The position numbers were made by a program, and so were the translations under genes. The notes below the pieces were generated by a model. That model saw only the letters and a program-made list of their open reading frames with translations, was not told where the DNA came from and ran no database searches. Below, piece after piece: positions 2,455 through 44,434 of a stretch of DNA of 44,499 nucleotides. Within the stretch, counting starts at the first letter, position 1, and each line of letters opens with the position of its first letter. The stretch covers positions 1-44,499 of the forward strand of contig CAZHPY010000004.1 in the NCBI GenBank assembly GCA_964534705.1, read 5' to 3'. This stretch comes from an uncultured Planctomycetia bacterium (lineage in GTDB: Bacteria > Omnitrophota > Gorgyraeia > 2-01-FULL-45-10).

Positions 2455-3965
2455 TATTTTCTGTGCAAAAGCTTATTTATGGCGTTGACGTAAGCCTTGA
2501 TGCTTGCTTCTATGATGTCGGTGCTTGCGCCCCTGCCTGACACGACCGCGCCTTTTGATCCAATCTTGACCGATACTTCTCCGAGAGCGTCTTTGCCGCT
2601 AGTGACAGACTTTATCTGGTAATCCAGCAATTTGCCGCCTGTTTTGACTATCTTGTCGATGGCCTTGTAGCATGCATCGACAGGGCCGTCACCGCCTGAA
2701 GAACTTTCAAAACTTTTACCTTTATACCTTATCTTTATAGTAGCTGAGGGCTTTACGCTATCGCCCGAGGTAATATAAAAATGTTCCAGCTTCACTTCTT
2801 CCGGGATCTTTGATATTTCCTCATCTACTATGGCCTCAAGGTCCTCATCAAATATTTCTTTTTTCTTGTCTGCCAGCGCTTTAAAACGGTCGAATGCCTT
2901 TTCTACCTGGTCCTCTTTCAGGACAAACCCCAGGCTGGACAGCCTCTCCTTAAAGGCATGGCGTCCGGAATGCTTTCCCAGGACAAGTTTTGTCCCGGTC
3001 ACCCCGACATCCTCCGGCTTCATTATTTCGTAAGTGATCCTTTCTTTCAATACCCCGTCCTGGTGTATGCCGGATTCATGCGCAAACGCATTCAATCCTA
3101 CTATTGCCTTGTTAGGCTGGACCGGCATGCCTGTCAGCTTGGAGACAAGCCGGCTGGTCTTGAACAGTTCCTTTGTATTAATATCTATCCTCATGTTCTT
3201 AAAAATATCGTTACGCGTCCTTATGCCCATTACGATCTCTTCCAGCGAAGCATTCCCGGCTCGTTCGCCAAGGCCGTTGATAGTGCATTCGACCTGCCGT
3301 GCGCCATTCAGCACCGCGGCCAGGGAATTCGCCACACCCAGGCCCAGGTCATTATGGCAATGCACGCTTATAACGGCATTGCCTATGTTGGGGACGTTAT
3401 CTTTTATCCCTTTTATCAGTTCCGCAAATTCGAACGGAGTGGTGTACCCTACCGTATCAGGGATGTTGACCGTTTTGGCCCCGGCTGCTATCACGGCTTC
3501 GACGACTTTATACAGGAAATCCCGTTCGGTCCGCGAAGCATCTTCGGGTGAAAACTCAACATCGCCGCATCTGTTCCTTGCGTATTTTACGGAAGAAGCG
3601 GCGAGTTTCAATATCTCGTCCTCGGCTTTTTTCAGCTTATACTTCATGTGGATCTTTGAAGTGGCCAAAAATACGTGGATACGGGATCTCTTTGAGTCCT
3701 TCAGCGCATTATACGCGGCATCTATATCCTTTTCCATGGCGCGCGCCAGGCCGCATATGACAGGCCCCTTCACATCTTTCGAAACGCGTTTTACCGATTC
3801 GAAATCGCCTTCGCTGGATATGGGAAACCCGGCTTCTATGACATCAACGCCCAGGACAGCAAGCTGCCTCGCTATCTCAACCTTCTCGTTGATGTTCATG
3901 CTCGCGCCCGGGCACTGCTCTCCGTCGCGTAATGTCGTATCGAATATTATTATTTTTTCATCCAT
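2454..3965 (-). CDS. leuA: 2-isopropylmalate synthase
   Basis: Motifs are [10 protein letters not shown] and [13 protein letters not shown], with a C-terminal LeuA-type regulatory domain. Length is 503 aa. Confidence 0.9.
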
Positions 3966-4942
3966 GGCATCATGTCTCTTAAGCTCTTCCCTACTTTTTC
4001 GATCTGATGTTCATCACCCTGCTTTAAAAGATTGTTAAAGTTGCACCTTCCGGTCTCATTCTCTTTTATCCATTCGCGCGCGAATTTGCCCGTCTTGATC
4101 TCCTTCAGCATCTTCTCCATCGCCTTCCTGGTCCTCTCTGTTACGATCTTCTTGCCGCGCGTTAAGTCGCCATAACAGGCCGTGTTGGAAACGCACCGTC
4201 TCATGCCTCCGATACCTTTTTCCTGTATAAGGTCTGTTATCAGTTTCAATTCATGTAATACCTCAAAATAAGCGATCTCGGGCTGATAACCGGCCTTAAC
4301 CAGTGTATCGAATCCCGCTACTATAAGTTCGCTTACTCCGCCGCAAAGCACTGCCTGCTCGCCAAAAAGATCTGTTTCCGTCTCCTCTTCAAAAGTAGTT
4401 TCGATAACGCCTGCCTTTGTACCGCCTATACCCTTCGCATAAGCAAGCGCCGTCTTTAATGCATTGCCTGTTGCGTCCTGATATATTGCGACCAGGCACG
4501 GAACGCCTTTCCCTTCTTCATACATCCTTCTCACAAGGGCTCCCGGGCCTTTGGGCGCTATCATTACAACATTGATCTTCTTGGATGGCTTTATCTGTTT
4601 AAACCTTATATTGAACCCATGGGAAAATATCAGCGTTTTTCCCTTGGTCATATTTTCGGCAATATCATTCTTGTAGACTTTTGCCTGGACATGGTCTTCC
4701 GTCAATATCTGGACTATATCAGCGGCTGCGGATGCCTCCTTGGCCGATACGGGATTAAAACCGTCTGCTTTTGCCTGTTCATAATTTTTTGTCCCCGGCA
4801 GTTCGCTGACGACCACTTCGATGCCGGAATCCCTTAAATTCAGGCTCTGTCCACGGCCTTGTATACCGTATCCTATGACCGCTATTTTTTTACCCTTCAA
4901 AAGATCCAGGTCCGCATCGTTGTCATAATATACCTTTGCCAT
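3950..4942 (-). CDS. ilvC: ketol-acid reductoisomerase (class I)
   Basis: The N-terminus reads [12 protein letters not shown]...[21 protein letters not shown]. Length is 330 aa. Confidence 0.95.
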
Positions 4943-4959
4943 TGTTACTCCTCCTATTT

Positions 4960-5475
4960 TTATTCGTTAACTTCCGGCTTTCCCTCAGCCTTTAATCCTT
5001 TTTCGCTGGTATCCATTGCTATCCTGCCCGTCCTGACGACTTCCACTATACCGAACGGTTTAAGAAGCGCAAGCATGCCTTTTATTTTTGTGGCGTCGCC
5101 TGTTGCCTCTATACTGATGGTCTTAGAACCAGCATTAACTATCTTTGCCTCGGCGGATTCGACTGCCTCAAGTATTTCTTTTCTCGTCTTGGGGCTTACC
5201 GCGACTTTTATCAGCATCAGTTCCCTGTCTACGAATTCCCCTTCTTTAAAATCGACCACTTTTATTATATCGATCAGCTTATTAAGCTGCTTTTTGATCT
5301 GTTCGAGGGTCTTATCGTCTCCTTCCGATACTATGGTCATTCTTGAGACGCTCGGATCTTCAGTCTCGCCTACAGCCAGAGAACTTATATTGAACCCGCG
5401 CGCGCTGAACAATCCCGCTATGCGCGCCAGCACACCAAATTTATTCTCCACTAACACTGATATCGTATGTTTCAT
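4960..5475 (-). CDS. ilvN: acetolactate synthase small (regulatory) subunit
   Basis: It has an ACT domain starting [28 protein letters not shown]. It sits directly downstream of the large subunit. Confidence 0.9.
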
Positions 5476-14396: not shown

Positions 14397-15464
14397 TTAA
14401 AATCCTACTTGTTTTACCAAAAATACAAGGGACAGCATGCTTAAATTATGGGTTATGTGCACCGTTATGGATGAAACAAGCGTTCCCGTCTTCTCATACA
14501 GATAAGCAAGAAGTATGCCCAGCGCAAATATAGGGAAGAACCCTACTATATGGGTGTGCAGGGCGGCAAAAATAGCCGCCGTGATAACCGCCGACCACAG
14601 GGCTCCCGCATATTTTTTTAAAGCGCCATACATAAACCCCCTGAAAAACAGTTCTTCGATAAAGGGCCCCAATATGGCGGCAAAAAGGCTTGAATACATA
14701 AGGAAGGCCGCGTTCTTTTCTTTCAAAAACAATTCCACTACCGGCTGCCTTTCGGGGACATACTTGGTAATATTTATTATCACCGCCGTGACTGCTAATA
14801 TAACTATCAGGACCGGTATCAGGGCTATATATCCTACCACCCCATAAAATATATTTCTTATGCAATTCTTTAGTGAAAGCCCTAATGCCCTCAGGTCCTC
14901 CTTATACTGGACTACTGTAAAGTAAATAATGAAGAACACCGCCAACAAGTCGAGTATAGAGGTATTGAATACCATCCTGAAATTGTCCGCTTTGAAGATA
15001 GGGAATATCCTGGACCATAGGGCTTCGGAAATAATTATTATATAGCCAAAAAACAAGAACAGGATCACGACCTTGCATATATCCCATATCGTCCATTTTG
15101 CGCGTGGCGGGCTTAGCGTGCGTATATCCAGTTTTTTACTCAATATCGCAGCCGAAATAATAAAATCGGCCACTATGCCCAGAAGCATAAGTGCCGCTAT
15201 AAGGAGAGTGGTTAAACTAAAAAGAACTGCGATCCGTTTATTTTTATATAAAAATTCTTCTGTATCTTTCCTGCGCGAAAAAAACTCTTTATTAAAACGT
15301 TCTGTCCTTTCAGCCATGATGGCCGTTGTGGACCTGGGTTGCTCCTTTTTAACTTTAGCGGATTTTTGAGGATAGAAAAACATTATACCGCTGAAAACCA
15401 GGACAAATATCAACAATAATATGTAAAGTCTTTCCCTATTGATGAAACTTGATATTTTATTCAT
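14397..15464 (-). CDS. CPBP (CAAX) family intramembrane metalloprotease
   Basis: It is polytopic, with motifs EELFFRG, FAALH and HITHN. I place the start at MNKISS (15464), which forms an ATGA overlap with the upstream stop. Confidence 0.75.
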   Translation of the reverse strand: MNKISSFINRERLYILLLIFVLVFSGIMFFYPQKSAKVKKEQPRSTTAIMAERTERFNKEFFSRRKDTEEFLYKNKRIAVLFSLTTLLIAALMLLGIVADFIISAAILSKKLDIRTLSPPRAKWTIWDICKVVILFLFFGYIIIISEALWSRIFPIFKADNFRMVFNTSILDLLAVFFIIYFTVVQYKEDLRALGLSLKNCIRNIFYGVVGYIALIPVLIVILAVTAVIINITKYVPERQPVVELFLKEKNAAFLMYSSLFAAILGPFIEELFFRGFMYGALKKYAGALWSAVITAAIFAALHTHIVGFFPIFALGILLAYLYEKTGTLVSSITVHITHNLSMLSLVFLVKQVGF

Positions 15465-16828
15465 CCAGTAACTCCATATTTCCTCATCCTGAAAGATGCG
15501 CCCAGTGATAACGCCAAGGTCTCGCACCCTTTCAGGTCGACCTCCGGCAGATCAAGGCAGGTTACCTCGGTTTCTATCCCTTTTTGCACGCAATCTTTAA
15601 TGAACTTAACTACCGCAGCATATGTCTTTGCCCCGAATTCAGGTTTACAGATCTTCTCATACAGGCCTTCGTTATCAGTATTCAGGCTCACCGAGACCTT
15701 ATCTATGACACCGGCAAGCTCTTTAACTACGGGCCCGTTATTTATAAGGTCTCCGTGGCCATTAGTAACAAGCCTGATCGTGGCACCCTTTGCCTTCAGG
15801 GCCTTTGCGACCGCTTTTACGGTATCTACCCTTGCCGTCGGCTCGCCATACCCGCAGAAGACTACCTCTTTATATTTTTTTGGGTCAGGCCCAACGGCCT
15901 TTAATATCTCTTCCTCTGTCGGTTCTTTGTTAAGCCTGAGATCATGCCCTTTAACAAAAGCTGTTTGGGCCCGGACGCAAAAATAGCAGTTATTCGTGCA
16001 CCTGTTCGTTATGTTCAAATAAAGAGAATCGCGTATTTCATATGCTATTTTGGACCTATCCTCATCAACGCCCAGCTTAAACAGTTTATTTGCATTATGA
16101 GTGGTTATCCTCTCTATATCGCCCTTTGTAAGGTTGGTTATCCGTGACCATTCATCGACTAAATATGTCAGATATGACGGTTCGTTGCGCTTGCCCCTCC
16201 TGCCTTCGGGCGCAAGATAAGGGGCATCCGTTTCCAGTAAAACCTTTTCTATGGGCACAGTTTTTGCCAGCTCCCTCAGGTTGCCGGCATTTTTAAATGT
16301 CAAATTGCAGGTAAATGATACGTAGAAACCCATGCCGAGACATTCATCTAAAAACTGTCTAGTACCAGAGAAGCAATGAATGACGCCCTTTAGTGCTGCG
16401 TATTCTTTTAAGATGCTCAAGGTATCGTCATCCGCCTGCCTTGAATGGATTATCAGCGGCAGCCCTGACCCCTGGGACAACCGTATAAATTTCCTAAAAA
16501 CCTCTATCTGCATGTCCTTAGGCGAAAGATTCCTGTAATAATCCAGCCCCACCTCGCCTATCGCAACGATCTTTTCTGCGGCGGCCAATGCCTTCAGCTC
16601 ATCGAATGTTTTTTCCGTAACAGTTTGGGCGTCATGCGGATGTACACCAACGGTGGCAAAAACGGCCTCATATTTTTTCGATAACTCTACGGCGCGCCGG
16701 CATCCTTCCAGGGAACTGGCCACGTTTATTACTCTTACCACGCCTTTTTCCCTGGCCCTGTCTAAAACAGCATCCCGGTCCTGATCGAAATCCTTAAAAT
16801 CAAGGTGGCAATGGGTATCTATTAACAT
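15461..16828 (-). CDS. fusion protein: TatD-family metal-dependent hydrolase (N) + radical SAM domain (C)
   Basis: TatD motifs are LIDTHCHLD, GEVGLDY, IIHSR, IHCFSG and LETDAPYL. A CTNNCYFC (CX3CX2C) motif follows at 15977-16000. I place the start at MLIDTH (16828), 2 nt after the metG stop. Confidence 0.75.
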   Translation of the reverse strand: MLIDTHCHLDFKDFDQDRDAVLDRAREKGVVRVINVASSLEGCRRAVELSKKYEAVFATVGVHPHDAQTVTEKTFDELKALAAAEKIVAIGEVGLDYYRNLSPKDMQIEVFRKFIRLSQGSGLPLIIHSRQADDDTLSILKEYAALKGVIHCFSGTRQFLDECLGMGFYVSFTCNLTFKNAGNLRELAKTVPIEKVLLETDAPYLAPEGRRGKRNEPSYLTYLVDEWSRITNLTKGDIERITTHNANKLFKLGVDEDRSKIAYEIRDSLYLNITNRCTNNCYFCVRAQTAFVKGHDLRLNKEPTEEEILKAVGPDPKKYKEVVFCGYGEPTARVDTVKAVAKALKAKGATIRLVTNGHGDLINNGPVVKELAGVIDKVSVSLNTDNEGLYEKICKPEFGAKTYAAVVKFIKDCVQKGIETEVTCLDLPEVDLKGCETLALSLGASFRMRKYGVTG

Positions 16829-16830
16829 AA

Positions 16831-18387
16831 TTATTTGTTTTCTATGCGAGGAAAAAGCGGATTGGATTTTTTGATCGAGGATCCCGCCTTCAGCATTCCC
16901 CATGATTTCCCGTCGGAGACATTCATTTTAGGCGCATATTCTTCCATACCTAATTGGGCCATGATGCTATCGGCGGTAGCCGGCATAAAAGGATGTATTG
17001 AAAGAGAAACTACCCTTAAGGATTCCAAGAGGCCGTAAAGCAACTGTGATAATTCTTCCTGCCTGTCCTCTTTAGCCAGGGCCCACGGCTTGGAATCTTC
17101 TATCAATTTATTTGCGATATTTATCACTTCCCATACTTTTGTAAGCGCTGCCACAAAATCCAGCTGTGGCATGGCTTTTTCCATTTCATCCGCCAATCCC
17201 AGCGACTTGGCCTTCAATTCTTCTGCGCCTTTTACGCATTGGCACTTTGACACATCGGCGCTTGGCACTTTGCCTGCAAAATATTTCTCGACCATCGTTA
17301 AAGTCCTGTTAAGCAAATTACCCAGGTCATTGGCAAGATCGCTGTTATACCTTGAAATCAGGGTCTCCTCGCTGAAAGCGCCATCAAGGCCAAAAGGCAC
17401 TTCCCGTAAAAGGAAATACCTATATGCGTCTATGCCATAACGCTCTATCAGGGACAACGGGTCAACGATATTGCCCTTGGATTTCGACATCTTCTCGCCT
17501 TTCACCACCCACCAGCCGTGCGCGAATATCGTTCTCGGCGGTTTTAACCCGAGCGCATGCAGCATTATGGGCCAGTAAACGGCATGATGGCGCAGTATAT
17601 CTTTACCTATGACATGAAAATCGGCCGGCCAGTATTTTTCGAGCCTTGCCATGTCTTCTGGATAGCCTATCCCTGAAATATAATTTATCAGGGCATCAAA
17701 CCATACGTATGTAACGAAATTCGTATCGAAAGGCACTTCTATGCCCCAGGACATGCGTTTCTTTGACCGCGATATGCACAGGTCGAGAAGGGGTTCTTTC
17801 AGGAATCCGAGTACTTCATTTTTACGAAATTCCGGTTTTATGAAATCCGGGTTAGACTTAATATAATCTATCAGCCAACCCTGATATTCGGATATTTTAA
17901 AAAAGTAATTTTCTTCGTCGAGCTTCTCCAGGTGCCTTTTGCAATCCGGGCATACGCCCGCATCCGCCTGGGCCTCTGACCAGAACGTCTCGCAGGGCGT
18001 ACAGAACCACCCTTTATAGACTTTTTTATATATCTTGCCTTCTTTATAAAGTTTTTCCAGCACAGTCTGGACTGCTTTTGCGTGCGCCGCGTCCGTCGTC
18101 CTTATAAAATAATCGTACTTTATATTCAGTTTATCCCAAAGCCCCCTGAACACCGGAACGATCTCATCTACGAACCGCTTTTCCTCTCCTTCTTTAAAGC
18201 CTCTTGCAAGGGTCGCCTTCTCTATTTTTTCGCCATGCTCATCCGTACCCGTCATAAAGAAAACATCATATCCTTTAAACCTGTAATAGCGCGACAGGGT
18301 ATCGACCGCTATATTTGTATATGAATGGCCTATATGCGGCTTTGAATTCACGTAATATAATGGTGTTGTTATATAGAATTTGGGCAT
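16831..18387 (-). CDS. metG: methionine--tRNA ligase
   Basis: It has HIGH (PHIGHSY), KMSKS and a CTPC...CPDC zinc knuckle. Confidence 0.95.
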   Translation of the reverse strand: MPKFYITTPLYYVNSKPHIGHSYTNIAVDTLSRYYRFKGYDVFFMTGTDEHGEKIEKATLARGFKEGEEKRFVDEIVPVFRGLWDKLNIKYDYFIRTTDAAHAKAVQTVLEKLYKEGKIYKKVYKGWFCTPCETFWSEAQADAGVCPDCKRHLEKLDEENYFFKISEYQGWLIDYIKSNPDFIKPEFRKNEVLGFLKEPLLDLCISRSKKRMSWGIEVPFDTNFVTYVWFDALINYISGIGYPEDMARLEKYWPADFHVIGKDILRHHAVYWPIMLHALGLKPPRTIFAHGWWVVKGEKMSKSKGNIVDPLSLIERYGIDAYRYFLLREVPFGLDGAFSEETLISRYNSDLANDLGNLLNRTLTMVEKYFAGKVPSADVSKCQCVKGAEELKAKSLGLADEMEKAMPQLDFVAALTKVWEVINIANKLIEDSKPWALAKEDRQEELSQLLYGLLESLRVVSLSIHPFMPATADSIMAQLGMEEYAPKMNVSDGKSWGMLKAGSSIKKSNPLFPRIENK

Positions 18388-27262: not shown

Positions 27263-28693
27263 TTAAAATTTATCTTTATGCTCTAAACCGAAAAAATTCT
27301 GGTTATCCCTTATCTTGACTTTCAAGCTGTCATTGGGATGCAGGTTGTACGAAAGCTCGTATTCGTCCCTGTCCCACAGGCTTTCGTCAACCTTATCATC
27401 ATTTACAAATTTTTTGAAGCCTATATCTATATCCCCGGCGATCTTCTTTTGCATCCTGAATTCACGCACATCCTGCCATTTTGATGTATTATATTGATCC
27501 CAGAGTATGGTGTTCTCCCCTTCCGTTATCTTGAGGTTCTCAAAAAAGCTGTCTTTACCTATCCTCGCTAAGTCCATGTATCCGCCAAGAGTGAAGGATC
27601 CGCTTTCACGGGTTATGCGTGAATCGTCTATTGCTATGACCGGCCCATCACCCTTAAGATCGGCGCTCAAAAACTCGAATTTCATATCGCCGACTTTGCC
27701 TTTTTTTATTTCAAGGCGCACTTTGCTCCGGATCTTTTCAAGTGGCCCTTTAAGCTCCCATTTGCTGTTCATTGTCCCCGCAATAAATGACGCATAACGC
27801 GGATTGAATATAGCCAGTATCTGTTCAAGGTTTACATTATCCGTTACGGCTATCGCATCCACCATATACGGCTCTTTAAGCGCAAATTTGCCATTCAGAT
27901 AACATATCTTCCCAAGATCAAGGTCGTTTATTTCAAATATCCCGTTGAACACCCTGTAAGACGCTTTTATGTCATTAAATGGCTTGTAGTTTAAAACAAG
28001 GTTTTTCGCTTCTATCTCTCCTTCGAAGCTCCCTTCCTTATTGCCCGAAAGGTCCCTGGATATGATATTCTTTATTATTGCCTCGCCCGTTATGTCAAAG
28101 TGATGCAGCTTAAGGTGGCTGGCAATTACTCTTAAGATCAGAACGCCGTCCGCCGCAAAATTGCCTTGTATCTTTGCAAGTCCTTCCCGTGGCCTGAGAA
28201 TCACATCGACTATGCCGTTCTTTATCTTGCCGGATATCTCTATCCTGTCCCCGCTGAACAATCTTATATAACCCTTGATCGAAGCATCGTCTATGGCACC
28301 TTCGAGGACTATAAAACCGGCAAGCTCATGGCTCTTTGCCGCAAAATCGATAGCTATATAAGGTTTTGCTGAAAAAAGTCCTGGAAAAATAAAATTCCAT
28401 ACCCTGTAATTTGAAATTATGTTGTCTATCTCGACGATCTTGGAAGGACCGTTGGCTTCTTTTTTGAGTATCTTGACATCCTGGAGCGAGAAAGGCCTTA
28501 TGATCCCTCCTCGTAGCTCGCCTATAGATATATCGATCTTCCTGCTAAAAACATCTTCGATCCTGCCTTCGGCCAGCACCTTGAACTGGGGCGCAAACGC
28601 TTCTATCCTGCTTTCAAAGAACGCAATAAAACTTAAAACCAAAAGTATGACCAAAAGCGCTTTAAAGCGCCTTCTAGCTCTTATGTTTCTCAT
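27263..28693 (-). CDS. hypothetical membrane-anchored, beta-rich protein (family not recognised)
   Basis: It has an N-terminal basic segment plus TM helix (RRRFKALLVILLVLSFIAFF). The remaining ~450 aa has alternating hydrophobic patterns. It starts 7 nt after the clpC stop and ends 23 nt before mlaE. Confidence 0.6.
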   Translation of the reverse strand: MRNIRARRRFKALLVILLVLSFIAFFESRIEAFAPQFKVLAEGRIEDVFSRKIDISIGELRGGIIRPFSLQDVKILKKEANGPSKIVEIDNIISNYRVWNFIFPGLFSAKPYIAIDFAAKSHELAGFIVLEGAIDDASIKGYIRLFSGDRIEISGKIKNGIVDVILRPREGLAKIQGNFAADGVLILRVIASHLKLHHFDITGEAIIKNIISRDLSGNKEGSFEGEIEAKNLVLNYKPFNDIKASYRVFNGIFEINDLDLGKICYLNGKFALKEPYMVDAIAVTDNVNLEQILAIFNPRYASFIAGTMNSKWELKGPLEKIRSKVRLEIKKGKVGDMKFEFLSADLKGDGPVIAIDDSRITRESGSFTLGGYMDLARIGKDSFFENLKITEGENTILWDQYNTSKWQDVREFRMQKKIAGDIDIGFKKFVNDDKVDESLWDRDEYELSYNLHPNDSLKVKIRDNQNFFGLEHKDKF

Positions 28694-40570: not shown

Positions 40571-43500
40571 TTATGCGGCTTCCGCGAACCTGCGTGCAGC
40601 TTCGCGCAGGACCTTCAGTTTCTCATGTTCCACTATTCCGGATACTTTACCGAGAGCGTCTATTATCTTCTTTACTATATCTGTTATGTCAAAAATAGTG
40701 ACATATCTCAGGTCCGTAACTGGGTCTCCATAGACTTTAAAATAATAGTACCTGGCAGTATGGACCTTTGCAGTTACATCGGCTATTGTTTCAGCATAGG
40801 CAATTCTTTCATCCGCAGACTTCCCCTTATTCAACTCGTCTATCAAAGCCTTCTGTTTATCATTCGTGACTATCGCAGCGACTTTTATGCCGGACCTCGC
40901 CAATTTTGGCAAAAATATTCCCAGTCCGTTATCAAAAGTAACTTTTTCTGAAAAGATAAATGTTGATTTATCCTTTTCAAGTATATTTTCTATACGTAAA
41001 AGGCGCGATAGCTCCTCAAGGAACACGGTTGTGTTTAGATGATTCTCATACCATTCCTGATGAAGAGGCTGTTCATCCTCTGAGGGTTCTTCTGATACAA
41101 TGGGCAGCGCCGGCACAAAGTCCATTAATGTGGCATCTTCGCCGATCTTTGCATCAAGGCTTTTCACATGTATCTTGCCCAAGGCAAGTAAAACTGCTCC
41201 GATATCATATCCCATACTATCGGCAAATTCAGTCATTAGTTCTGTTTCCGACAATTCCCTGCTGTGCTCCATTTCGGATCTAACCTTGAATTCCCTGAAC
41301 TTTCTTCTGATCTGCCTCAGGCTTTCCGGCTGATCTCGATAATACAATATCAAGTTGATGCATTTGAGATATGTATGTAGATAAGCAATATAGGACGACT
41401 GCCTCAGATCATTCTTAAGCAGATTAGCATATATATTATGCCGCATGCTTGCCTCCAACAGCAGTTCATAGGCCAGCGATTTTCTGCTTTCATCTTTGTA
41501 CTTTTTTATCCGATCCAGGTGCCTTTCTATCAACCAGTCTCTTGCACCCACCCTTATTTTTTCATCGCATGAAAATAATAAAAGCCCCGCTTTTCCATAA
41601 TCATCTTCTGATATCGTTTTTACTTTCAACAAGGCAGATAAGCAGGCCTTCTCTTCTTCAGTTGCCTTGCGTATATATTCTTTTAGCTCCTCCCGCTTCC
41701 CTGAATCTTCAGCCAATATATCTATTAAACCGTAAACGGTACTTAATCCGAATTGGCGCAACAACAGCCTGAATTGCAGGTATTTCTTTTCTTCATCATT
41801 CAAAAGACGGTCTAATGGAGGCATTTTTGCCTTTTCTTTACGCATATATGAAAAGTTTCTGGTAATAAATTCGGGGTTTGCTATTATTTTTGCCACCAAA
41901 ACATTAGGGATGTTAAACCCCGGTATCACTGCCTTTAACTTCATAAATTCAGTTGCATAACTTTTTATCTCGTTTTCTTTCCGTGAACCGCGTAGTACAA
42001 GAGAAAGGCAATAGCTCTCGTTTATGCCAACCTCTTTTAGGGTTTTGATAATACCCTTTATCTCTCCTTCCTTCCGGGAGCTTATAAGGACAGAGGCAGT
42101 ATGAAATCCCTCGCTGATGCCAAACCCCTTAAGGACATTGACAAGGCCTTTCATCTCTTCTCCCTTGCGTGAACTTGCGAGGATAAGGGCAAGATGATAA
42201 GATTCGGTAATACCAAGCTCCTTCAGGGTACCAACAATAGATCTTATTTCTTTTTCCTTCCGGGCACCACGCAATATTATGGAAAGGTGATAACCCTTGG
42301 TTATCCCAAGTCCTTTCAAGGTCCTGACAATGCTCTTTATCTCTGTTTCCTTCCGGGAACTTGTAAGGATATAAGCAAGGTGGGCCCCTTCGGTTATACC
42401 AAGCTCTTTCAATGTATCTACAATAGATTTTATCTCTTCTTCCTTCCTTGCGCTGCGCAGTATGAGTGAAAGATTCGCGCCTCCTTTTATGCCAGCCCTT
42501 TCCAGTGTATTAATAATATCCACTATCTCTTTTTTCTTCCGGGCGCTGTGCAATATAAGGGAAAGGTGATAACCCTTGGTTATCCCAAGTCCTTTCAAGG
42601 TCCTGACAATGCTCTTTATCTCTGTTTCCTTCCGGGAACTTGTAAGGATATAAGCAAGGTGGGCCCCTTCGGTAATGCCCAGCCTTCTCAGTGTTTTTAC
42701 AAGAGATTTTACTTCTTTTTCCTTCCGGGAACTTGTAAGGATAGGTGCAAGATAAGCACCTTCTGTGATACCAAATTTCTTCAAGGTTTTGATAATGGTT
42801 TTTATCTCTTCTCCATTGCGTGAATTTGTAAGGATAGGGGCAATATAAGCACCTTCTGTAATGCCAAAATCCCTCAGTGTGTTAATAAGCTCTTTTACCT
42901 CTTCTTCCTTCCGCGAACTTGTAAGAATAAGAGCAAGATGATAACCTCCGGTTATGCCAAGCATTTTAAGGGTATTTATAAGACTCTTTATTTCTTTTTC
43001 CTTCCGGGAACTATGCAATATCATGGCCATATGAGCACTCTTAGTAATGCCAAACATCTTCAGGGTCTTGACAACCGATCTTATCTCTTCTTTTTCCCGT
43101 GCGCTGTGTAGAATCTGGGCAAGATGAGTGCTGCCGGTAATCCCAAGTTCTTTTAGAGTTCTGATAAAAACCTGGACATCTTCTGCTTTTCTGGAACTCG
43201 CGAGTATGCTGGCAATATGGTTGCTTTCTGTGATACCAAGCATTTTAAGGGTATTTATAACAGAGCTCACATCTTCTGCTTTTCTGGAACTTATGAGTAT
43301 GCGTACAATATGATGGCTTTCGGTGATATAAAGCTCCTTTAGGATATTAATAAGAACTATCATCTCATCTTCCTTACGGGAGCTGCGCAGGATCAGGGTG
43401 AGATGATTGCTCTTAAATACAAAAGATCCGTTATCTTTACACAGGAATGATAACCGCAGAACTTCTAACCTCTCATTCAGCTTTATAATCTTTGATATTT

Positions 43501-44434
43501 TATCTGCCTGCGCAGGACTGAAATATGGCTTGTTATTTTCACATAACCCCTGCAGCAACCTGCTTATTTCTTTATCAACATCCTTTCTTTTGATCTCTTT
43601 GCCGTCAGCTTTCGCCAGAAGCGCCCTTACATCACTGATGACTTTATCAAGAACTTTGCTGTCGGTGCGCCGAGCCTTATCTCCTGCCATCATATAATCT
43701 CTGTTAATAACATCCGGGTGCATGGCAAAAACAAGGTTTACGAATTCCCGGACCAGTAATTTATCTATAATACGGCCGTTTCTCTCTACCTGATGTTGTA
43801 ATCTGACATTATCTTTTTCAAAATTCTCTCGTGCTGATCGTATAAAAGAATTTATATTCTGCGGAGTATCCGGGTTTTTGGCTATTAACCCTTCGTCAAA
43901 TAATTCTTTCGCCCTCGTAGACCTTGCCCTTATCTCATGAAAAAGTCTGGCTATTATCTTACGCCTGCCTTCTTTTGAGTGCTTTTCATCTTCTAAAGCA
44001 AACGCTGAAATATATGCGCCTGCATGCCCCCATGCTCTTCTGCCTTCAAATAAAGGTAGGTCATCTTCGTTTTTCACAAATATGACCTGTATTTTACCTC
44101 CGGAAGATCTAAGGGTTGTATTAAGTCTTGTAAGCATATTTGCTGCGCCACAGGCATCGATAATGCCCATGAACTCTTCTTCAAGATATGGAATAGCTGA
44201 TAGACTCCTGGCTTTAGTGGAATTTTGTCTTATAAGCTCATCTATAGGGCCTTGATGCGCGACAAGGCGCTCTTCCATCATGTCATATAGTTTCTGGTAG
44301 ATTTTAGGGTTTCCTGCTTGGGGGGCAAGTGTACTTGTATCAGCCAAAACGATTGTGTCGGCGCAAAATAGGCATACTAAAACCATCTCTACAGCCTTGA
44401 ACAAAACATTATATTTGTCTTTATGAAAAGTCAT
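40571..44434 (-). CDS. 1287-aa orphan repeat protein
   Basis: It is a single uninterrupted ORF convergent with comM. It comprises an unassigned ~340-aa N-terminal region with one hydrophobic segment, 16 x 31-aa tandem repeats, a degenerate sigma-70 region 2-3-like segment and an unassigned C-terminal domain. Repeat periodicity is in frame. I saw no catalytic motif. There is no obvious SD before ATG 44434, so the exact start is uncertain. Confidence 0.8.
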   Translation of the reverse strand: MTFHKDKYNVLFKAVEMVLVCLFCADTIVLADTSTLAPQAGNPKIYQKLYDMMEERLVAHQGPIDELIRQNSTKARSLSAIPYLEEEFMGIIDACGAANMLTRLNTTLRSSGGKIQVIFVKNEDDLPLFEGRRAWGHAGAYISAFALEDEKHSKEGRRKIIARLFHEIRARSTRAKELFDEGLIAKNPDTPQNINSFIRSARENFEKDNVRLQHQVERNGRIIDKLLVREFVNLVFAMHPDVINRDYMMAGDKARRTDSKVLDKVISDVRALLAKADGKEIKRKDVDKEISRLLQGLCENNKPYFSPAQADKISKIIKLNERLEVLRLSFLCKDNGSFVFKSNHLTLILRSSRKEDEMIVLINILKELYITESHHIVRILISSRKAEDVSSVINTLKMLGITESNHIASILASSRKAEDVQVFIRTLKELGITGSTHLAQILHSAREKEEIRSVVKTLKMFGITKSAHMAMILHSSRKEKEIKSLINTLKMLGITGGYHLALILTSSRKEEEVKELINTLRDFGITEGAYIAPILTNSRNGEEIKTIIKTLKKFGITEGAYLAPILTSSRKEKEVKSLVKTLRRLGITEGAHLAYILTSSRKETEIKSIVRTLKGLGITKGYHLSLILHSARKKKEIVDIINTLERAGIKGGANLSLILRSARKEEEIKSIVDTLKELGITEGAHLAYILTSSRKETEIKSIVRTLKGLGITKGYHLSIILRGARKEKEIRSIVGTLKELGITESYHLALILASSRKGEEMKGLVNVLKGFGISEGFHTASVLISSRKEGEIKGIIKTLKEVGINESYCLSLVLRGSRKENEIKSYATEFMKLKAVIPGFNIPNVLVAKIIANPEFITRNFSYMRKEKAKMPPLDRLLNDEEKKYLQFRLLLRQFGLSTVYGLIDILAEDSGKREELKEYIRKATEEEKACLSALLKVKTISEDDYGKAGLLLFSCDEKIRVGARDWLIERHLDRIKKYKDESRKSLAYELLLEASMRHNIYANLLKNDLRQSSYIAYLHTYLKCINLILYYRDQPESLRQIRRKFREFKVRSEMEHSRELSETELMTEFADSMGYDIGAVLLALGKIHVKSLDAKIGEDATLMDFVPALPIVSEEPSEDEQPLHQEWYENHLNTTVFLEELSRLLRIENILEKDKSTFIFSEKVTFDNGLGIFLPKLARSGIKVAAIVTNDKQKALIDELNKGKSADERIAYAETIADVTAKVHTARYYYFKVYGDPVTDLRYVTIFDITDIVKKIIDALGKVSGIVEHEKLKVLREAARRFAEAA
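42281..42394. repeat. perfect 114-nt direct repeat, copy A
   Basis: By eye it is identical to 42560-42673. The offset is 279 nt, which equals 3 repeat units. Confidence 0.85.
42560..42673. repeat. perfect 114-nt direct repeat, copy B
   Basis: By eye it is identical to 42281-42394. It encodes TEGAHLAYILTSSRKETEIKSIVRTLKGLGITKGYHLS in both places. Confidence 0.85.

Follow-up and report, generated by a model that had tools for sequence, protein, structure and literature searches.

The known motif closest to the repeat array considered here, which lies in the last gene of a 44,499-nt stretch of DNA (contig CAZHPY010000004.1; hereafter the window), is that of the mTERF proteins. Their canonical motif has Pro at position 8 and hydrophobic residues at positions 11, 18, and 25, which form three heptads resembling a leucine zipper (PMC11417379). 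A 2026 survey reported mTERF proteins to be absent from bacteria (PMC12977773). The first prokaryotic mTERF-like class, pTERF, was described in 2024 in the Nucleic Acids Research paper "Systematic discovery of DNA-binding tandem repeat proteins" (PMC11417379). Two examples, pTERF1 (MBQ3414883.1) and pTERF2, bind specific double-stranded DNA (dsDNA) motifs with nanomolar dissociation constants, and specificity differs between arrays. The pTERF proteins come mostly from metagenome-assembled genomes (MAGs) of gut Bacillota and contain three to 11 units with three helices per unit; their cluster identifier, TR_35, implies a period of 35 residues (PMC11417379).

The window gene (40571..44434, minus strand) encodes a predicted exported, multidomain protein of 1287 residues (P0001), whose central array consists of 31-residue units. 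The initial annotation of this DNA recognized no described bacterial family in these repeats. That statement needs amending, since a prokaryotic class had been published in 2024 (PMC11417379); for the 31-residue family of Omnitrophota, however, our literature search found no description. Recent papers on Omnitrophota cover giant proteins as well as repeats of the HEAT, TPR, NHL, and dockerin types, but not this array family.

The array is a Pfam-level mTERF relative in the structural neighborhood of mTERF proteins and TAL effectors (TALEs). Its family is a little-known bacterial relative of one long thought to be exclusive to eukaryotes and tied to their organelles, and it differs from pTERF. 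Function is a more balanced judgment. Sequence, modeling, and analogy together make it about an even call that the array is an mTERF/TALE-like solenoid for nucleic acid binding, probably to dsDNA, within an exported protein; the binding itself is a prediction. A second, independent bacterial mTERF-like lineage bears on the origin of the DNA-wrapping fold of the mTERF/TALE type, and this lineage combines very regular units with passing scores against the Pfam mTERF model and alignment with a TALE-like protein. Such regularity (no insertions or deletions over 16-18 units, and up to 26 units) is the trait that makes TALEs and the pTERF/STAR proteins attractive for engineering.

A regular 31-residue repeat with an mTERF-like fold

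Cut in a 31-residue register, residues 339-834 (41933..43420, minus strand) yield 16 tandem units with no insertion or deletion. A hidden Markov model (HMM) of the unit, run on the six-frame translation of the window, makes exactly 16 matches spaced 93 nt apart (41933-43417), with none elsewhere in that translation and none in 50 shuffles of the protein. This HMM was trained partly on the window's own 16 units, so the unbiased evidence is the exact spacing together with the independent result of Tandem Repeats Finder (TRF), a 93-nt period at 42206-43302. The head-to-tail arrangement and 93-nt period first noted for this array are thereby borne out, as is its framework, each residue of which is present in 12-16 of the 16 units: L11 and R15 in all; I1 and L27 in 15; I10, K16, E19, and G31 in 14; S13 and T26 in 13; and T2, H6, and K28 in 12. 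The nine residue triplets quoted for positions 5/9/12 are all correct.

TRF also reports a 279-nt period within the array. Unit 12 (42305..42397, minus strand) has the same protein sequence as unit 9 (42584-42676), and in the pairwise identity matrix the two match at 98% of nucleotides, a sign of recent duplication or gene conversion. On the opposite strand of the array, two open reading frames (ORFs) of 91 codons (42194-42469 and 42548-42823, plus strand) are near-copies with 279-nt spacing. They were rejected as genes and treated as repeat shadows, on the grounds of this mutual 279-nt repetition.

Searches with the full-length protein against Pfam, NCBIfam, and PDB sequences return nothing meaningful; the mTERF relationship emerges only when the array is scanned alone. 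Ten units (residues 370-679) match Pfam mTERF (PF02536) in two collinear stretches, with a score, summed over repeated units, of 51.1 bits (E 1.2e-13; the curated gathering cut-off is 23.1 bits). Across the family, 24 of 27 array segments match this model, and the closest array homolog, P0025, reaches 91.9 bits. HEAT, TPR, PPR, PUF, ANK, Sel1, and TAL_effector are all missing from the leading Pfam matches listed for the array. A three-unit profile searched against PDB sequences gives only noise.

The fold was modeled with AlphaFold2 (AF2) from ten units, using an alignment in which windows of homologous arrays were shifted by whole units. (MAFFT staggered the shifted copies of the window's own array, so those rows added nothing.) In the resulting model (predicted local distance difference test, pLDDT, 88.3; predicted TM-score, pTM, 0.77), DSSP assigns each unit a helix A (positions 4-12), the loop S13-S14-R15-K16, a helix B (17-29), and the junction L30-G31-I1-T2-E3. 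Positions 5, 9, and 12 share one face of helix A directly ahead of the loop, as the initial annotation had proposed. A separate model, of the array together with its conserved lead and tail regions (844 residues, alignment of five sequences), is poor (pLDDT 52.5); Foldseek still ranks MTERF1 first.

For the ten-unit model, the leading natural matches in PDB are MTERF1-DNA complexes (5crk, 3mva, 3n6s; probability 1.00, TM 0.47-0.53). Probabilities for MTERF1, MTERF3, and MTERF4 range from 0.98 to 1.00 (TM 0.36-0.53), with the MTERF4 structures 7o9k, 7odr, and 4fp9 at 1.00. These are followed by many structures of the TAL effector dHax3 (probability 0.72-0.99, TMq 0.37-0.53). Every natural protein in the top 38 is one of these four: MTERF1 on DNA, MTERF4, MTERF3, or dHax3. 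The remaining matches are designed helical-repeat proteins and low-probability ones, and the top 50 include no HEAT, ARM, TPR, PUF, or PPR structure. Likeness to the mTERF fold is moderate in this model, not tight. The view that mTERF is the closest motif agrees with both the Pfam score and the fold ranking, and no competing HEAT, TPR, ANK, Sel1, PUF, or PPR match appeared among the leading profile and fold matches.

A further connection comes from alignment of profiles. With hhalign, the three-unit family profile aligns with P0065 (probability 90%, E 1.6e-6), taking a two-residue gap in the inter-helix loop and placing R15 opposite the conserved lysine of a G-G-S-K loop. Canonical AvrBs3-type repeats show no similarity in the same kind of comparison (probability 0.07%). 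P0065 itself, found in the search of representatives, is a 444-residue protein with 33-residue TALE-like repeats (LGFTAEQMVKMVSH[N/S/I]GGSKNLE...) that have HN, HS, HI, or NI at positions 12/13. It passes Pfam TAL_effector at 33.5 bits and Pfam mTERF at 32.8 bits, and so forms a sequence-level bridge between the two repeat families.

The array thus resembles mTERF proteins in its helical repeat of about 30 residues, its PF02536 score above the cut-off, its best natural fold neighbor (MTERF1 on dsDNA), and its basic surface. It differs from them in several respects: its units form an exact, uninterrupted tandem, whereas mTERF motifs are degenerate and interspersed; DSSP finds two helices per unit, whereas the mTERF motif has two plus a 3-10 helix; family arrays extend to 26 units, compared with about 8-10 motifs; and the proteins are bacterial (from Omnitrophota), carry signal peptides, have multidomain or giant architectures, and share only 14-19% identity with solved mTERF structures. 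The likeness to pTERF lies in a prokaryotic origin, truly tandem units annotated as mTERF, and the missing canonical Pro and Leu features. Compared with the published description of pTERF, however, the period is 31 rather than about 35 residues, the helices number two rather than three, the units 16 (up to 26) rather than 3-11, and the source is Omnitrophota rather than Bacillota; moreover, the proteins here are large, exported, and multidomain, whereas pTERF proteins are small and not so described.

TAL effectors share with the array a two-helix hairpin, a short inter-helix loop, and a variable position 12 beside that loop; they also make up the second group of natural Foldseek matches, and the family profile aligns with the TALE-like P0065. 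In contrast to the repeats of TAL effectors and TALE-like proteins (Pfam PF03377; dHax3 and the BurrH/Bat and MOrTL types), the unit has 31 rather than 33-35 residues and a loop two residues shorter. Position 13 is Ser (73% in the family, 13 of 16 units in the window), so there is no repeat-variable diresidue pair, and variation extends over about 12 surface positions instead of the hypervariable pair 12/13. The array protein also lacks the architecture of type III secretion, nuclear localization signal, and activation domain. Finally, PBS-lyase HEAT repeats (HEAT_2/HEAT_PBS) are two-helix solenoids with a period of about 31 residues, and they appear in the weak tail of the profile search; yet the leading Pfam matches of the array include no HEAT family, and the Foldseek top 50 no HEAT structure.

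Conservation and variation across the family

An exhaustive HMMER search with the three-unit profile over 1.84 billion cluster representatives finds 60 proteins at E<=1e-3, 17 of them at E<=1e-30. Several are giant proteins of 3,000-7,000 residues, and none of the 60 has a clear 35-residue bacterial repeat. Toward the weak end of the list are HEAT_PBS-type, PPR, mTERF, and TALE-like proteins. When one genome per species (185,579 species) was scanned for a pattern, at least four loci were confirmed: two belong to Candidatus Omnitrophota, and the others carry the labels Planctomycetia and Ca. Elulimicrobium. Because the pattern is narrow, four is a lower bound. The array family is rare and occurs mostly in Omnitrophota.

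Units per protein range from one to 26, with a dominant spacing of 31 residues: one in P0002, at least two in P0024, 16 in the window protein, and up to 26 in P0027. The flanks of the single-unit P0002 are 66% identical to those of the window protein and include the same lead and tail. In a family logo built from 197 units of 15 proteins, R15 is 94% conserved, above every core residue. The other conserved positions are I20, L27, I10, I1, L11, S14, S13, A8, and E19; S13 and S14 are conserved at 73-75% (S13 at 73%), and position 19 is acidic in 87% of units. Hydrophobic columns fall at 1, 7, 10, 11, 20, 23, 24, 27, and 30. Most arrays are strongly basic, with an isoelectric point (pI) of 9.2-10.3 in 13 of 15; the window array has a net charge of +29 and a pI of 9.85.

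Positions 5, 9, and 12 are among the most variable, with entropies of 2.2-2.7 bits, and so are 18, 22, 25, and 29. Variable sites occur on both helices (5, 9, and 12 on helix A; 17/18, 21/22, 25/26, and 28/29 on helix B), and units differ from one another at about 12 surface positions. On helix B, the exposed face (18, 22, 25, 26, 28, 29) varies nearly as much as on helix A. A count of recent change, from 47 recently diverged unit pairs with 236 differences, gives 16.7 changes per position for the helix A surface (5, 9, 12), 2.2 times the uniform expectation. The corresponding values are 12.7 for the helix B surface, 9.3 for the junction, 3.5 for the S-S-R-K loop, and 3.2 for the core. Core and loop are therefore conserved and the surface is free, with the exposed face of helix A only modestly more variable than that of helix B.

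Most unit pairs are 50-74% identical in nucleotide sequence, and synonymous sites are saturated (proportion of synonymous differences, pS, about 0.65): the units are old. Despite this saturation, framework sites in the window units have a proportion of nonsynonymous differences (pN) of only 0.04-0.14, so the periodicity is maintained by purifying selection.

These patterns separate two parts of the earlier proposal. The rigid two-helix scaffold expected of a TALE, PUF, PPR, or mTERF-type reader is there; the restriction of variation to a few aligned positions is not, as it extends beyond them and covers both helix faces. A helix-face code in the form first suggested is not supported, on three counts: the helix B surface varies nearly as much; pN approximates pS at the variable sites; and the 66%-identical homolog has but one unit.

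Predicted binding and its alternatives

In the favored explanation, each unit would form a helix-loop-helix hairpin, and the hairpins would stack into a superhelix like those that human MTERF1 and TAL effectors wrap around dsDNA. The array would then act as a nucleic-acid-binding module, most likely for dsDNA, spanning tens of base pairs. The S13-S14-R15 loop, presented once per unit, would track the phosphate backbone; residue 12 beside this loop, together with positions 9 and 5 of the same face, would provide a unit-specific surface and contacts; and caps for the solenoid would come from the conserved lead and tail. Wrapping of dsDNA is suggested because of the homology and fold neighbors, the TALE-like alignment of R15 with a lysine, and the precedent of pTERF. 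In TALE-like proteins this loop lysine contacts phosphate. Also counted in favor of binding are the conservation of R15, the basic charge of most arrays, the purifying selection on the framework, the helicase-bearing carrier encoded next to the P0006 array protein, and the weak alignment of the type B tail with sigma region 4. The array is a cargo in Omnitrophota proteins that bear Sec signals, so it probably acts outside the cytoplasm of the producer.

Stronger versions of this explanation fare less well. A code of one unit for one base is not supported, and sequence-programmable reading of any kind by the array seems unlikely. Equally hard to credit at present is an effector role, in which the array would be the DNA-targeting cargo of a protein delivered by Omnitrophota into a host or prey cell, the order of its units specifying host DNA targets. 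The conserved end domains of the protein would then be carriers that ferry cytoplasm-type cargoes (MutS, SecA, SNF2 helicase, methyltransferases, and the array) into that cell. If true, this would be a prokaryote-versus-prokaryote counterpart to TAL effectors and might offer a new scaffold for programmable DNA binding. The cargo arrangement, if confirmed, would provide a handle on how the uncultured, host-dependent nanobacteria of the Omnitrophota interact with other cells.

Several observations weigh against a DNA-wrapping solenoid. The mTERF Pro8 and three Leu heptads are absent from the family logo, in which no column reaches 11% Pro, and there are two helices per unit by DSSP, not three. 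Pfam scores are inflated for a repetitive query, being summed over its units (ALS_ss_C also reaches 3e-18, without a single passing stretch), and the Foldseek E values are modest (5e-3 to 1e-2, at TM about 0.5). Variation covers both exposed helix faces without a TALE-like concentration. The variable sites evolve at about the synonymous rate (pN 0.57-0.69 at 5/9/12/22, compared with the overall pS of 0.65), so relaxed constraint accounts for their variability as well as selection does. The single unit of P0002 implies that the module does not depend on a long array. Two arrays, P0018 and P0028, are not basic, and the i, i+4 spacing of R15 and E19 would permit a purely structural salt bridge. 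Finally, an extracytoplasmic location is unusual for DNA binders, and the family proteins carry signal peptides.

The main rival draws on several of these same points. Here the array would be an α-solenoid rod of adjustable length, serving as a spacer or a protein-protein scaffold to hold or present the remaining domains of a protein that is exported or on the surface, and its surface variation would simply be unconstrained. Signal peptides, the plastic number of units (one to 26 per protein), variability at all exposed positions of both helices, and a pN close to pS at the variable sites all suit such a structure, as does the weak similarity of the family profile to HEAT_2/HEAT_PBS proteins of similar period (E 1e-13 to 1e-9). 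However, no HEAT, ARM, or TPR entry appears in the Foldseek top 50 or among the leading Pfam matches of the array, and the fold neighbors are all nucleic acid binders. A passive spacer, moreover, needs neither a surface-loop arginine as its most conserved residue nor the strongly basic charge of most arrays. A scaffold is possible, but on balance we find it doubtful.

Other ligands come to mind more easily than they can be defended. An mTERF-like module for RNA, in the style of MTERF4 and plant mTERFs (rRNA, introns), could act on RNA of the producer itself, the N-terminal segment then being a membrane anchor. The MTERF4 structures among the top Foldseek matches, which come from mitoribosome assembly intermediates, are in keeping with this idea, and two papers describe RNA binding by many eukaryotic mTERFs (PMC7826268, PMC4005652). 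Yet the positive-inside rule would put the bulk of the protein outside the cytoplasm; polymorphic carriers with unrelated cargoes do not suggest a housekeeping RNA factor; and neither does a family this rare and patchy (60 clusters among 1.84e9 proteins, at least four loci in 185,579 species genomes). We consider it improbable. Slightly less probable still is an adhesin-type module whose ligand, on a host or prey cell, would be another periodic polyanion or an envelope polymer, such as teichoic or teichuronic acids, lipopolysaccharide, polyphosphate, or S-layer glycans. The protein is apparently exported, its basic surface offers a Ser-Ser-Arg loop once per unit, and one paper describes Omnitrophota as host-dependent, ultra-small cells (PMC10066038); but the array shows no link, by fold or by profile, to known repeats that bind carbohydrates or the envelope, and its fellow cargoes are cytoplasm-type enzymes (MutS, SecA, SNF2, radical SAM) rather than adhesins.

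Carrier domains, cargoes, and gene neighborhoods

The window protein begins with a signal-peptide-like N-terminus (residues 1-32; 44339..44434, minus strand, as for all parts of this gene), in which hydropathy and a motif scan identify a basic n-region, a hydrophobic core, and VLA before the predicted cleavage site. From these features we infer that the signal peptide is cleaved and the array protein exported. Nearly all complete family members likewise have a basic and then hydrophobic N-terminal stretch. Past the hydrophobic segment, the window protein contains TLAP at residues 35-38 (44321-44332), one instance of a motif, [STAC]-L-[ARS]-P (TLAP, ALRP, TLRP), found at residues ~28-43 in 18 of 24 proteins. 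In P0034 the only match is at residue 2, because the gene call begins at the motif. Its occurrence in carriers, stand-alone array proteins, and giants suggests that it may be a sorting or processing signal.

An N-terminal carrier domain of about 220 residues follows (residues ~33-255; 43670..44338; GNPKIYQ...WGHAG...FHEIRARSTRA...NRDYMMA). It is kept in P0002-P0023 irrespective of the middle region; it has no Pfam, NCBIfam, or PDB sequence match, and its profile also finds no PDB sequence relatives. The C-terminal carrier domain of about 175 residues (residues ~1113-1287; 40571..41098; STFIFSEKVTFDNGLG...ARRFAEAA) ends in AEAA and is common to 17 homologs with unrelated middles; searches of Pfam and of PDB sequences, the latter also with its profile, found no relative.

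Between these ends the array is flanked by two helical regions. The lead (residues ~262-338; 43421..43651; GK.I.RKDV...KP.F...KL.ERL..L) aligns with P0002, P0006, P0018, and P0024. It always precedes the array, and is also found in P0025, P0029, P0030, P0032-P0035, P0040, and P0041. The tail of the window protein, type A (residues 835-~1105; 41120..41932; AG[LI]LLFS...NIY.N...LPES.R...SEF..RGYD...LSLD), is conserved in P0002, P0029, P0030, P0032, P0033, P0034, and P0041 and has no Pfam or PDB match. To the eye, both this tail and the type B tail resemble a sigma-70 domain. For type A the idea is rejected: hhalign against RpoD regions 2-4 gives a probability of 0.3%, and Pfam and PDB are blank. 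Type B tails (P0006 residues ~1115-1175; also P0018, P0025, P0028, and P0031) follow the pattern L..L...EQ..I..FL.GY...EI...YPDIS. They align weakly in hhalign with the helix-turn-helix of RpoE sigma-70 region 4 (E 0.0019, probability 14%), and may be helix-turn-helix elements adjoining the array.

In the multidomain and giant proteins, a Ser-rich linker (S-S-[AS]-G or S-A-T-G) frequently comes ahead of a module (P0041 ~610; P0029 ~745 and ~1680; P0032 ~795; P0034 ~770); it stands directly before the C-terminal domain in P0005, P0007, and P0003. Many family proteins end in ...AA. Judging from their positions, these linkers and ends may be processing sites or C-terminal signals.

Homologs of the window protein are almost all proteins of Candidatus Omnitrophota MAGs, and most of those found in the first homology search are linked by the two end domains rather than by the array. 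Between the same ends lie MutS, SecA, HATPase, inositol monophosphatase, CheR, methyltransferase, radical SAM, kinase-like, and TPR regions. The end domains look like a family of carriers with a swappable cargo, of which the array is one. Lead, array, and tail are found together in three further contexts as well: small signal-peptide proteins (P0025, P0030, P0032, P0035/P0047); giant multidomain proteins (P0026, P0027, P0029, P0033); and a second family of carriers, whose conserved ends are different (P0006, P0018, P0028).

The second carrier family is represented at one locus (L001 290-20256, plus strand) by four tandem genes for proteins of 1140, 1263, 1296 (P0006), and 2852 residues. Common to all four are a signal peptide, the N-terminal domain (...PGTMV...IKYFLA.LTVPE.D.WVNLSPYE...), and the C-terminal end (GGIDL...LQI.RD..G..LPL...PVI..I.P). 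As cargo they carry, in order, HEAT repeats, a region of unknown kind, the mTERF-like array, and an SNF2/DEAD helicase, so that the array gene is directly followed by a paralogous carrier with a helicase. Genes two and three overlap by 4 nt, and the arrangement recurs at another locus (L003).

On a further Omnitrophota contig (L004, plus strand) an array gene is split in two, through either pseudogene formation or assembly error. The first ORF (3274-4026, 250 residues) resembles P0035 and encodes the signal, the lead, and four units; the second (4089-5372, 427 residues; P0031) encodes seven units and a type B tail.

The neighborhoods of the carrier genes P0003 and P0015 share no partner genes. 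P0003, a carrier gene of the first family, lies 2.7 kb upstream of a secretin gene (Secretin_N + Secretin; L006 7764-9320, plus strand). An AAA_22 ATPase gene lies between the two, and a gene for a large TPR protein just downstream of the secretin. The secretin cluster adjoins P0003 only, not P0015, so the link is tentative.

In the window itself, YraN- and ComM-like ORFs adjoin the array gene, and the upstream genes are housekeeping ones: LeuA, IlvB, IlvD, MetRS, CysRS, ClpC-like, LysRS, and a MacB/FtsX-type permease. No functional partner of the array gene is seen in the rest of the window. A 476-residue ORF inside the housekeeping operon (27263-28693, minus strand) has no Pfam match at E<=1e-8. 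A 480-residue ORF (15461-16903, minus strand) joins a complete TatD_DNase (residues 28-276) to Radical_SAM (residues 296-453), and is either an unusual fusion or a pair of adjacent genes merged by the mechanical ORF call.

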